Shown: piece by piece, positions 23,993 to 29,006 of the stretch
How the letters are laid out: the number at the start of each line of letters is the position of its first letter
Position numbering within the stretch: the first letter of the stretch is position 1
Origin: Candidatus Bathyarchaeota archaeon
GTDB taxonomy: Archaea; Thermoproteota; Bathyarchaeia; Bathyarchaeales; DTEX01
Assembly (NCBI GenBank): GCA_963714275.1
Contig: CAVQNT010000001.1
Span: 1 to 64,000 of the forward strand
Length of the DNA: 64,000 bases
Reading direction: 5' to 3'
The notes under the pieces: model-generated
Told to the model about the DNA's origin: nothing
Database searches by the model: none
The model's input: the letters and a program-made list of their open reading frames with translations, nothing else
Made by a program: the position numbers and the translations under genes

Positions 23993-24514
23993 TTACAGGT
24001 ATATTTTGAGCAGCTGCCTTTTGTCCAAGATGAAGATGATAATGACGCTTATTACGAGTTCTACGAGCAGGTAGCTGCCGTTATAGATTGCTGAGTAGAT
24101 GACAGGGTTCATGCCTTCAGGAGCGTACATCCAAAAGAACCACAGGCCCGATGTGAAGTGCGCCAAGAACCTTCCGAAGATTGCCACGACGACGCCGACC
24201 AACGGGTACTTTCGGAATAACCCAGCTAGCCCCAATGCTCCGAAGGCTAAAGGATAATCAATTATGGCTTGAACAGGGTCAACGATGTATCCGCCTAGAG
24301 CCATATTAACCATCCCGTAAACGGCACCTGCCTCAACTCCTGCCCGTAAACCCCTTCTCAAAGCAAACCAGATGAGAGGCACCATACCTGCGACGCTTAC
24401 TGAACCACCTTCTGGAAGCTTGATGCTGGGCAATAAATCTTTTAAAATCACGGTTAAAGCTACTACGACTGTTCCTTCTGCGAGAACCTTAACGTTTGAC
24501 GAAACTTTACTCAT
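23993..24514 (-). CDS. thiT: ECF-type thiamine S component ThiT
   Basis: LPEGGSVS, RRG, PVQAIIDYPLAF, RFLAHFTSG, YSAIYNGSY; TPP riboswitch upstream; start at MSKV. Confidence 0.9.
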   Translation of the reverse strand: MSKVSSNVKVLAEGTVVVALTVILKDLLPSIKLPEGGSVSVAGMVPLIWFALRRGLRAGVEAGAVYGMVNMALGGYIVDPVQAIIDYPLAFGALGLAGLFRKYPLVGVVVAIFGRFLAHFTSGLWFFWMYAPEGMNPVIYSAIYNGSYLLVELVISVIIIFILDKRQLLKIYL

Positions 24515-24520
24515 TCTGCA

Positions 24521-24610
24521 TCCCTCCGCCAGTATTGTCTGGATCAGGTTCAAAGGGTCAACGGTCCATTCAACCGTCCTCTCAGCCAGGTCGAACCCGG
24601 CTCCCCTCGA
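24521..24610 (-). promoter_or_regulatory. TPP riboswitch (THI element)
   Basis: Minus strand reads GAGGGGAGC..GCTGAGAG..GACCCTTTGAACCTGATCCAGACAATACTGGCGGAGGGA, matching the TPP aptamer consensus; TTATATA box ~24633-24639. Confidence 0.93.
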
Positions 24611-24758
24611 CCGTGAAATAGAAAACTCCGAATATATAACTATTTTGACACCTCAATGGATAAAAAGTTAAAATGCCAAAATTTGGTATTGTTGTTGACA
24701 ACATTAGACTTTATTTGTCTATAAGTATTTACTTTGGGTTAATTGACGGTGGAAGCGC

Positions 24759-25599: not shown

Positions 25600-25738
25600 C
25601 TCAATTCACTCTTTTTTTCCTCTAGTCGAAAAGAAAGAGATTATGAAGCAGTAGACTAGATGGCTTATTAGAAGAAAAGAAACATATTACAATCCAATAA
25701 TTAGATTATGAACCTAAAGAACTGAAACTTATAAATAC

Positions 25739-26755
25739 CTAATTACCCCGACTTTTTCTCTTTCCTATTTTTATTTTTATGAGATTTGACAGGTTGACCG
25801 CCATTTCTTCCATGCCAGCAGGAGACGGGTGAACAAGGTCAAACGTTAGTCCCGAAGCGGTTTTCAACACCTCTCTTCCGTCAACATAAACGAGCCTAGG
25901 CATATTCAGCTTCTCCACCGCGTTTCTGACTGTCCTTCTAAACTCGTTCTGTTTTTTGGAATTAGGATCATAGTCAGCTGCGAAAGTGAACAGGTCCATT
26001 GCGAACACCCATTTGTCAGAATGAGCCTTCGCGATTCGTTCAACAAGATATTCAGCTCTTTCTGTAAACTCATCGGTCGAAAATTCGCCAACCATGTTGA
26101 TTCCCATCTCCAAAGACGCGAAGCCCCAATCTTCACGTTCTGCGATGTAGTCCGCAATCTGATTTTCACAGTGAGCTCCTCCGCCGAAACCAAGATTAAT
26201 CAAGTCGACACCGAGATGCTGGGCTGTTCTCATAGCGTAAGAGCCTGTTGGTCTCAAAGCAGACGCACCATGCGTAATTGATGAGCCGTACGCAAGGTAC
26301 TTCATCTTGGGTGTTTGATCTTTTCTAGGAAGCGAGGTTTCTCCTTCGATGTCTATGAGTCTTATTTGAGAGAATATGGGCAGAATTATCCTTGTTAAAT
26401 GCGGATCAAATGGTAGACCTTTTTCTTTCGTGACTTTATCTAGGAAGCTCAGGTTGTCTGGTAGGCTCACTGTGATCTCCGTAGGCTTCATGCCTATACT
26501 TTGCCATGAAATTTGGAAATCTCCCTGGAAAACTTCAGCTATTCCGATTCCTTCGCAAGACAACGTGATTTTTGCTGATTTGCCTTCAAGGTTGAAACGG
26601 ATCTCGCATCCAGCGGCACACATCGCATTCGTTTCAGCAGCTGGGTTAAGGATCACTCTGAGGCTATTAGGGATTCTCGTAATGTTTTTTCCAACGCCAT
26701 CTTCAGGGGTTAGAAGTTCAGCTACATTGTATAACTCGACGTCTTGAAAATTCAT
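25739..26755 (-). CDS. SGNH/GDSL hydrolase
   Basis: YGSSITHG, NLGFGG, GIN, DLVHPS. Confidence 0.88.
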   Translation of the reverse strand: MNFQDVELYNVAELLTPEDGVGKNITRIPNSLRVILNPAAETNAMCAAGCEIRFNLEGKSAKITLSCEGIGIAEVFQGDFQISWQSIGMKPTEITVSLPDNLSFLDKVTKEKGLPFDPHLTRIILPIFSQIRLIDIEGETSLPRKDQTPKMKYLAYGSSITHGASALRPTGSYAMRTAQHLGVDLINLGFGGGAHCENQIADYIAEREDWGFASLEMGINMVGEFSTDEFTERAEYLVERIAKAHSDKWVFAMDLFTFAADYDPNSKKQNEFRRTVRNAVEKLNMPRLVYVDGREVLKTASGLTFDLVHPSPAGMEEMAVNLSNLIKIKIGKRKSRGN

Positions 26756-26904
26756 GCAGCAATCTCCTGTGTTCTGAAATGTCTAATCCTAATTATACAG
26801 CGAATATTTGTTTTTCTATATTTCTGAACGTAGATTTTCACTTTCAACTTATGCATTAACCACTAGTTAGCACGACCAATGAAAATAGCTGAGCTAGTTA
26901 AAAC

Positions 26905-27194
26905 TTGGAATGGAAGTAGTAGGATAGGCACGCACACAAAATCCTACTACTTCTGATTTAGTTCTTCGTAAGGAGCTTCTAAACATTGAGGAAGCCCTCG
27001 AGAATGGTAAAAATTTTGCGACTTGGTTTAGAAGAAATAGGAAGCTGCAAAACGCACGTTTCTTCTTCTGCTGCTGGTGTAGTAGTCTCCGCAACTTACA
27101 GGACTACTACTTTTAGACCAAACCTCTGAAGAGATGTTCAAACTAAAAGAAGTTGACCACACGGAAACAGCGTGGTCAACAACTACTATTCCAA
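26905..27194 (+). ncRNA. Candidate large structured non-coding RNA of unknown family
   Basis: Eight largely compatible nested helices found by eye; G-U pairs favour the + strand; T-rich tracts at 27202-27228. Confidence 0.45.
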
Positions 27195-27593
27195 TACGCT
27201 ACTTTTTAAGTGTCTGTTTTCTCTTTTTACAGGAATTCAAGTAATTAGATTAACAGACTTACGTTCATATATAGATTTTAAGTGATTCCTCATCGCTTGA
27301 TAGTTCATCTGAAATAACTAAATTAGAAGAAGAAAGAAGATACATACGAGTCAGCGTTTTCTTCTTCTACTATTTCTAACCGTCTAATTTTGTGATTAAC
27401 ATTATCAACCGTTTTTCCAAGAGCTTAGCAATAACCTCATTAAACATATATTCATATAAAAATCTACAAAGCCCTCCTCTAGCTGAGCTAGGGGGTTATC
27501 GGAAAGAACTCTAAGTCTTGGTTCAATTTCAGTGTATATAATGAAAAACACACGCCAAACTGGGCTACCGAGCGCTACCAGAAAAGGCTTTAT

Positions 27594-28308
27594 TCACTGA
27601 TTTTCTATGATATTGGAGAACAAATTAGCAATTTCATTTACGGCCTTTAAAGCATTTGTAGTTCCCATCTCCACATTTCTCAAGTATTCTCTAAACCATT
27701 TTTCCAACTTCTTCAACATGTCTTTTCTAAGATTCTTAGCTGCGGCACTGGACTTCCGTGCATCCTTATCTAGTTTCCATGTATCCGACTTGACCCCGAG
27801 AATATCTGCGATCTTCTCCAAAGACTGTTTCAAAGCCATACTGCAAGGCTCCTCGATAGTCCATTTTTTTGCTTAGACGTAACCGGATATAGATCTTTTG
27901 CGAAATGAGTTCTGATAATAATTCATCCGCGAAGATGTCGTCGAAGAGCCCGATTTTTTTCGTTCTCTGATCCCACAGATAAGTAGACCACATGATACTA
28001 TGGATGAGCTCATGAATCAAATCCTTGCTTAGAGATTCATTGCTCTTCACGTCAAAAAGCGAAATACTATCAGGCCTTCTCGGGATGTCTGTTAATGCCG
28101 CAAAAACTTTTTCGTTCTCATTTGGTTGTCTTGCGACCACTTCAATGTGACTTGCTAATCTCCTCCATTGCAGACCTGTATATTTTTCTATCATCTTTAA
28201 TGCTTTATTCTCATAGTTTTCTCTCCAGAAAGGTTCAAAGTCTCTTACTTTGGCTTTGTAACCTCTTTTAGCTTGAAAAACAATGTCTGGCCTTTCCCTT
28301 AATGTCAC
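27594..28308 (-). CDS. Hypothetical protein with HExxH zincin-like motif (frameshift ~27800-27840)
   Basis: DLIHELIHS...DE in 27766-28308; continues in the 27594-27839 frame. Confidence 0.6.
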
Positions 28309-29006
28309 GCCGCGAGCACCGTTTGAAACTATTTATCTTCGGTTCTTATTTAGTTTCAAGAATCCTTTTATACCATCCGCTAGCTGAGCTAAAACAAATT
28401 GAGATGAAATAAATTCGCATTGCCAAGTAATCCTAGATCCTCGAACACTGAGAATATCCTTTAAGATTTTGGTCTACAAACTTTTTTTGATAGTTACCTA
28501 AGATGAAGACTTGACATCATCTGTGCCTGCTTCCATTCTGGTTAGTTGAGTTACTTGTTTTTCGTGTATCTTTTTGGAAGTGGTTTCTTCTTCTGTTGTT
28601 TACTCGGCATTCTTTTGCCTCTCCTCAGTTTTCGTGTTGCAAGAACAACACGACTGCAATTAATATAGATTGCCTCCTTCTGTTTTTTCTAGGGAGAACA
28701 CTAAGTCTGAAAATAACTCTAGGATATGATAGCGTGCGTTTCAATAAACGGCGCCAATGTAAAGCATTAAAGTTTCAAACTCTAGATGCTGATGAGAAAA
28801 ACCATGTTCTCAGCATGGATTTCTCTTTCCTTTGTACGTCGGTGTCTATACGGCAGGACACGTTTTGTGTCGTCAGCTACTTTTTCTACTTTATTTAGTC
28901 AGCTAGCTTAACTTTCTGGATGAGCTGTACACTTAATAAGTCAAAAAGAGAAAACGAAAAAAATAAAATGAATCTTCAGTTTGCTGATAACTAGCATATA
29001 CAGTGT

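Follow-up and report, generated by a model that had tools for sequence, protein, structure and literature searches.

The block at positions 26860-27491 of the window, i.e., the whole 64,000-nt stretch of DNA analysed, is most probably a collection of gene debris that varies between strains and comprises no fewer than four incomplete, degenerate copies of a putative small-terminase gene (terS). The fragments, three in + and one in − orientation, show homology to paralogues, broken frames and reshuffling, all of which are demonstrated by the comparisons given below. The source gene would be a putative terS of tailed viruses infecting or integrated in this archaeal lineage, and each fragment would be a mid-gene piece retaining the linker inverted repeat carried by intact members of the family. 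Packed together, such palindromes and the short repeats of flanking codons (GGTTTAGAAG, encoding GLE..) mimic a nested multi-helix RNA. The mosaic may have grown through duplications and inversions that the palindromes favoured, e.g., the tandem C-D-E hairpins of one frame and the inverted A and F, and the window copy probably has no function of its own. A point against this derivation from terS debris is that the multiplication is confined to mid-gene pieces. The block itself is ordinary, namely the debris of a virus gene.

Hairpins, fragments and paralogues of the block

An earlier sequence-only reading had placed in this gap, which it took to be gene-free, an undescribed structured RNA of ~290 nt with a single nested architecture. 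All of its helices are present at the coordinates it gave. Sequence inspection confirmed TTGGAAT 26905-26911 / ATTCCAA 27188-27194 and TTGGTTTA 27023-27030 / TAGACCAA 27114-27121, while a repeat search found 100% complementarity in hairpins A (26913-26925 / 26941-26953, 13 bp), D (27079-27087 / 27102-27110) and E (27152-27160 / 27172-27180). A further 12-bp hairpin, F (27324-27369), lies beyond the coordinates given in that reading. When folded with RNAfold, the + strand of 26905-27230 reaches -98 kcal/mol, with z = -4.48 and 0/100 dinucleotide shuffles as stable, and the minimum free energy (MFE) fold includes the closing helix 26905-26911/27188-27194. The reverse complement of the same interval has a z of -4.35, so that fold energy by itself does not distinguish the strands. 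The clustering of hairpins is real and far above chance expectation: a scan of the whole 2.64-Mb assembly (perfect stem of at least 9 bp, loop of 4-30) returned 240 perfect hairpins, of which four, hairpin F among them, fall in 26913-27369, within 460 nt, where ~0.04 would be expected. At gathering thresholds, the sole Rfam match in the window is a TPP riboswitch elsewhere, with none in the hairpin region, and an E-value scan (E ≤ 10) of 26700-27650 gave chance-level matches alone (E ≥ 2). A 19-mer pattern derived from hairpin D had 3 matches in public genome contigs, 0 in viral and 13 in metagenome sequences; all 16 loci share the pattern alone and are unrelated chance matches. BLAST of the region against 40 related genomes gave 0 matches.

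The gap is made of broken coding fragments. Fragment 1 (+ strand) begins with the end of helix 3 of a helix-turn-helix (HTH), seen in translation as 'MKIAEL' (26879-26897), and includes the first copy of a 12-nt repeat, TAGCTGAGCTAG (26886-26897), which corresponds to the codon string ..IAEL at the end of the HTH; ATAGTGAGCTAG and ATAGTGAGCTTG occupy the equivalent place ahead of the modules on C2 and C7, two contigs of the same genome. The linker palindrome of fragment 1 is hairpin A (26913-26953, +; covariance model R1, 57.3 bits), which reads EVVG*ARTQNPTT with an in-frame TAG, the + strand translation of 26913-27011 being EVVG*ARTQNPTTSDLVLRKELLNIEEALENG. The rest of fragment 1 (26954-27011, +; SDLVLRKELLNIEEALENG), earlier described as hairpin B, contains the family motif ..LSIPDDLPSVEEAL.., is 75% identical to C7:34981-35045 and matches positions 51-74 of the family profile (E value 0.08). 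Fragment 2 (VKILRLGLEEIGSCKTHVSSSAAGVVVSATYRTTTFRPNL*; 27007-27129, +) is part of ORF 26986-27129 and is matched by R1 with 52.7 bits. It holds two linker palindromes in one frame, hairpin C (~27029-27069) and hairpin D (27079-27110), and shares 80% identity with C7:34933-35001 and 76% with C2:424576-424663. Fragment 3 (LKEVDHTETAWSTTTIPIRYFLSV..; 27134-27244, +), recognised by translation and repeat search, bears hairpin E (27152-27180) at the same linker position as in the other fragments, with a different stem, GTTGACCAC / GTGGTCAAC. Fragment 4 (27258-27470, − strand) is frameshifted, was traced through its C2 paralogue, and comprises HTH helices (NEVIAKLLEKRLIMLITKLD), RLEIVEEEN.., hairpin F and SSSNLVISDELSSDEESLKIYI*. 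Read in shifting frames from 27470 to 27258, the minus strand gives NEVIAKLLEKRLIMLITKLD / RLEIVEEENADSYVSS / SSSNLVISDELSSDEESLKIYI*, and the window copy of this fragment matches the profile with E values of 0.3 and 8.5. A second copy of TAGCTGAGCTAG (27480-27491; repeat search) forms the right edge of the block, at the strain breakpoint 27491/27492; the sequence is near-palindromic, so that it constitutes both a direct and an inverted repeat.

In a BLAST search of the own genome, 27081-27473, i.e., the right half of the reported element and a further 250 nt, was 86% identical to C2:426479-426871; four indels (1, 1, 2 and 4 nt) separate the two copies. The C2 paralogue retains all three stems of hairpins D, E and F; hairpin E has a loop change alone, and hairpin F a divergent loop. 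Hairpin A has a counterpart at C2:426910-426952, inverted and on the opposite (downstream) side. The C-D pair is found again at C2:424576-424663, and C7:34933-35045 carries a C-type hairpin with a B-like flank. Neither the closing helix 26905/27188 nor the enclosing helices have a counterpart in the 86%-identical C2 paralogue. Because these helices are missing there and hairpin A is inverted and displaced, the modules must be regarded as independent and reshuffled, and the comparison gives no support to the single nested architecture. About 3.5 kb separate the C2 paralogue from a gene for a tyrosine integrase, and the surrounding AT-rich stretch has RHH and weak Rep-like genes. That stretch, G000:C2:427000-431700 (L006:10000-14700), encodes an RHH protein, a weak Rep3_N/AAA-like ORF and a 419-aa tyrosine integrase, ends beside the gene for a proteasome alpha subunit, and has paralogous terS fragments just upstream; it is probably an integrated element. 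No long flanking direct repeats and no tRNA gene were found at this island, and the idea of a replication origin or att site there was discarded as unsupported for the same reason.

Ten modules could be aligned with one another as members of one family, the consensus being TGGTTTAGAAG-TAGTAGGA / loop / TCCTACTACTTCTGATTTAG. In this alignment, two stem positions switch from A-U to U-A, in four modules each, and the covariation score is 0.197 versus 0.121 in shuffles, 3/500 of which reach 0.197. When the partners were slid by +3 columns, the score was almost unchanged (0.183), as the stems consist of repeated triplets. Searching with a covariance model of the 10 modules located further copies at C1:113441-113505, C4:127180-127242 and C6:505846-505905, along with a weak one at C7:188560-188624 (E value 0.53; 20.6 bits). 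The genome has only about a dozen module-bearing loci. The flanks of the copies translate to one protein family with the pattern KPWTxEEEKQLRxL..IA..MNKT.QA..KKI.RL.L - [VV..loop..TTT] - RLSIPDDLPSVEEALRVL.AAL.ALQ.GGLDQ.EVLRLR.., in which the hairpin is positioned in the linker between the N-terminal HTH and the remainder of the protein. VV, EE or VDH is encoded by the 5' arm; the reading of the 3' arm is shifted by one base and gives TT, SS or WST. The stems differ in sequence (GTAGTAG/CTACTAC, GTTGTTG/CAACAAC, GAAGAAG/CTTCTTC and GTTGACCAC/GTGGTCAAC), as do the encoded residue pairs (VV..TT, EE..SS and VDH..WST).

The genome has one intact member of this family (C7:215255-215731, 159 aa) and about ten broken ones. 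A family profile built from 34 intact relatives matches broken copies at C1:113321 (E value 3.8e-10), C2:424610 (E value 3.1e-9), C7:34891 (E value 6.4e-8) and, over profile positions 28-76, on the minus strand of C2:426671-426829 (E value 4.5e-4). The pieces in the window match it weakly (E values 0.08, 0.3, 3.2, 6.0 and 8.5), and the window fragments were not among the matches of a tblastn search with one family peptide. Since the direct profile matches are weak, the assignment rests on nucleotide homology to the paralogues together with the readable motifs. A chain of nucleotide homology leads from the window fragments to the paralogues, and the fragments contain stops and frame changes, which is what characterises them as pseudogenes. 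In the terS-like fragment at G000:C1:113321-113620, the Trp codon that is conserved in the family is replaced by TAG (KP*T), and another stop codon stands immediately ahead of the hairpin. About 100 nt past this fragment, the other strand has a sequence resembling the 3' end of a tRNA gene, and the locus may be an old integration site.

The block is also variable among strains. Assembled contigs of four DNA metagenome runs were compared with 25700-28400. Those of three of the four runs (X1, X2 and X4) track the window through 26859 and then continue into unlike sequence, one X2 contig for 373 more bases past the breakpoint, and in one X4 contig 55 unlike bases precede the match to the window, which starts at 27492. 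These breakpoints define the fragment mosaic as a variable insert (26860-27491) between the GDSL-lipase gene on the left (25739-26755, −; ORF scan) and an 81-aa ORF on the right (27594-27839, −). Other short metagenome contigs contain single modules in other contexts. In one hairpin D variant from a metagenome contig, the loop is nearly the reverse complement of that in the window, which hints at a flipped loop or at another paralogue.

Comparison of 13 neighbouring ORFs with PHROGs gave nothing useful. The AT-rich stretch to the right of the block includes a 180-aa ORF (27766-28308, −) with a HELIH (HExxH-like) motif and no Pfam or PHROG match. The TPP riboswitch mentioned above (24504-24617, −) scores 62.2 bits (gathering score, 54.3). 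It overlaps ORF 23993-24553 in its 5' part, and the true start of that gene is thus probably further downstream; a TPP riboswitch in a Bathyarchaeia genome is of possible interest by itself.

The putative small-terminase family

The family is present in 8/61 relatives and in 119/401 of the Bathyarchaeia genomes sampled, often in several copies per genome. In 28/34 intact loci, a match to the large terminase subunit (TerL) is found downstream. It begins no more than ~100 nt from the terS stop in 26 of them and ~900 nt further on in two, and in three loci both Terminase_6N and Terminase_6C were confirmed by Pfam. The remaining 6/34, which include the only intact copy in this genome, have no adjacent TerL. 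The copy of genome G040 is located in a provirus with a tail-tube gene. Based on gene order, size and architecture, we propose that these proteins are the putative TerS of tailed viruses of Bathyarchaeia.

The usual layout of a small terminase subunit is an N-terminal HTH, a flexible linker and long helices. The AlphaFold model, obtained from a 32-sequence alignment with a mean pLDDT of 84, predicts a three-helix HTH at residues 9-46 (helices 9-20, 25-32 and 36-46), a low-confidence, non-helical linker at 47-72 to which the residues coded by the hairpin belong, and long helices at 73-87 and 94-150. In its HTH, the protein is similar to the DNA-binding domain of GcrA. At 135-200 aa, with this order of parts and with its gene overlapping or abutting terL in 28/34 loci, the family is similar to the TerS of Caudoviricetes. 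It differs in having a GcrA/Myb-type HTH and in matching no Pfam TerS family or solved structure. Pfam gave no curated TerS family, weak GcrA/Myb-type HTH matches being the sole result. Searches of PHROGs and of PDB sequences gave no terminase match, and Foldseek of the monomer model versus PDB returned nothing at E ≤ 0.001 and no terminase match. There are at least 635 relatives in the databases. None of the best 120 of the 635 is named a terminase; they are unnamed, 'hypothetical' or have stray names, and three of the four named organisms among the 120 are 'Candidatus Bathyarchaeota archaeon' records. A search of viral contigs with a 4-sequence family alignment yielded 147 pattern matches, of which none was confirmed.

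Two broken terS-terL pairs were found in the genome, at C2:284080-285900 and C6:348923-350741, and are remains of tailed proviruses. In both pairs, frameshifts or stops interrupt terS, and the terL sequence is distributed over three frames. No intact TerL was found in this genome, both copies being in pieces. Tailed viruses of Bathyarchaeia have been described, and in the part of the source available the large terminase is the only terminase named (PMC10848311). The block resembles defective Bathyarchaeia proviruses and gene relics in that decayed virus genes, here including the two broken pairs, persist in the host chromosome; it differs in that the palindrome-bearing middle of one small gene alone has been kept and multiplied.

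The linker palindrome in intact genes

For each of the 34 intact genes, which are not mutually independent, 28 codons from the aligned RLGL anchor were compared with three control segments of the same gene, and the longest perfect stem was compared with 300 synonymous-codon randomisations. A perfect stem of at least 9 bp is present in the linker of 10/34 genes, versus 0, 2 and 0 of 34 in the controls. At p ≤ 0.05 against the synonymous null, the linker is significant in 11/34 genes and the controls in 0, 2 and 2 of 34, and the mean linker stem length is 7.24 versus 5.34 in the null. The palindrome begins 0-6 codons past the RLGL end of the HTH, varies in stem sequence between genes, and is found in both deep branches (those with G040-like and G053-like TerL neighbours). 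It is kept beyond what the amino-acid sequence requires, in subgroups and not in the whole family, since 23/34 intact genes have no significant linker palindrome. A sliding-window MFE comparison with synonymous shuffles was uninformative, the best window often lying outside the linker, because AT-rich stems score low; the perfect-stem comparison was used instead. In two genes of the G053-like TerL branch, L072 (G012:C37) and L083 (G421:C36), the linker palindrome consists of a self-complementary 12-mer repeated in direct orientation and encodes LSTQ....LSTQ or LTGQ....LTGQ. L072 has a perfect 14-bp stem, whereas the longest perfect stem of L083 is 7 bp, inside a longer imperfect one.

The 12 intact-gene hairpins with stems of at least 8 bp contain 146 Watson-Crick pairs, 0 G-T, 0 A-C and 6 others. 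Since wobble pairs are absent, the palindrome seems more likely to reflect a constraint or mechanism at the DNA level than an mRNA structure. The decayed modules of the genome itself have, on the + strand, 97 Watson-Crick pairs, 7 G-T, 2 A-C and 15 others; the 7 G-T versus 2 A-C are a weak hint of the strand bias that an RNA reading predicts.

A tentative suggestion is that the palindrome of intact genes acts at the DNA level, likeliest as part of a packaging-recognition (pac) signal. The guess draws on the location of the P22 pac inside terS, on the DNA-like character of the element and on a linker that tolerates any sequence. In P22, a headful phage, the pac is a 22-bp asymmetric sequence within the small-terminase gene (gene 3) (PMC9611059). 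The likeness consists of a cis element within the terS reading frame of a tailed virus, with terS directly before terL, and the palindrome does lie in the place expected of a pac site, in or beside terS. Unlike the P22 pac, the candidate element here is an inverted repeat with 8-14-bp arms and a ~10-25 nt spacer in the post-HTH linker, its sequence is not conserved, it occurs in some family members only, and the host is archaeal. Alternatively, the palindrome might merely be tolerated in an unconstrained linker, having been produced by template switching, or it might be an mRNA pausing signal or a recombination site. An extended version of the pac suggestion, which we consider doubtful, is that the linker inverted repeat is the pac signal of Bathyarchaeia tailed viruses, read as DNA in the form of a cruciform or of paired half-sites, and that chromosomal arrays of terS mid-fragments are pseudo-pac sites. 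DNA ends cut by terminase could be the origin of such arrays, whose effect could be to drive the transduction of adjacent host DNA or to serve as decoys for the terminase. In the literature searched, no report of a palindrome inside an archaeal terS gene was found.

Alternative readings and significance

The block might be a working DNA signal made from pieces of terS, either a pac-like array for helper packaging of the chromosome or an island (satellite-like or lateral transduction) or a decoy that titrates TerS. This would account for the multiplication of the palindrome-bearing gene middle alone and for stems that stay perfect while loops diverge between the window and C2 copies. The tyrosine-integrase gene ~3.5 kb from the C2 paralogue, with RHH and weak Rep-like genes nearby, is also in its favour, as is the precedent of a pac inside terS in P22 (PMC9611059). 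However, no intact terminase genes were found in the genome, there is no integrase match among the 11 ORFs scanned between 20497 and 30620, related strains have other sequence in place of the block, and the identity of the palindrome as a pac is itself that of a candidate. A working signal is therefore unlikely. Less probable still is a structured ncRNA, possibly exapted from gene fragments and transcribed from the + strand. Its best arguments are the z of -4.48, the A/C-rich loops of the + strand with T-runs following at 27203-27226, the 7 G-T versus 2 A-C pairs in the modules of the genome, and the covariation score of 0.197 versus 0.121, reached by 3/500 shuffles. The last of these follows from coding palindromes, with a score of 0.183 still reached after the +3 column slide, and the first is offset by a reverse strand that folds equally well. 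Moreover, there is no Rfam match, the paralogue lacks the long-range helices, modules occur in inverted or reshuffled order, hairpin F is part of a minus-strand fragment, and the block is absent from related strains. Given that every hairpin aligns to one coding linker, and given the stops, the frameshifts and the strain divergence, the ncRNA reading is unsupported. The other option in the sequence-only reading, a folded ssDNA element of a mobile unit, fared better in part: an origin in mobile elements stands, in the form of tailed-virus packaging genes, and the palindromes have a DNA-level character.

Bacterial REP/BIME and BOX elements are mosaic intergenic hairpin repeats, and the block shares with them short palindromic modules that are adjacent, clustered in both orientations, intergenic and variable in content among strains. 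The stems moreover contain GTAG, a motif of E. coli REP sequences. Were the modules mobile intergenic repeats of the REP/BIME, BOX or MITE type, their coding resemblance would be due to chance. In contrast to those elements, the modules here are pieces of a coding gene and are few, with about a dozen loci, and they occupy a single fixed place in an ORF of which intact copies exist elsewhere, beside TerL. Apart from the coding 12-nt repeat, neither terminal inverted repeats nor target duplications were found, and the genome, which is 91% complete, has no PF01797 (Y1 transposase; RAYT / IS200-type) and no TnpB (PF07282). A REP-like origin is accordingly very improbable. The specific idea of an IS200/IS605 or RAYT element was rejected on the same search, with 0 PF01797 matches where control genomes do match, and no PF07282.

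The interpretation of the block as decayed terS debris removes one candidate ncRNA and illustrates that clustered coding palindromes can imitate a multi-helix RNA. What is modestly new is a putative small-terminase family with a linker palindrome maintained at the DNA level. In this way, a large protein family, none of whose 120 listed relatives is named a terminase, gains a name and a candidate cis element. Should the palindrome prove to be a pac, then, within the literature searched, no packaging signal would have been proposed before it for viruses of this uncultivated archaeal class, and it would provide a sequence handle for locating the start points of transduction in metagenomes.
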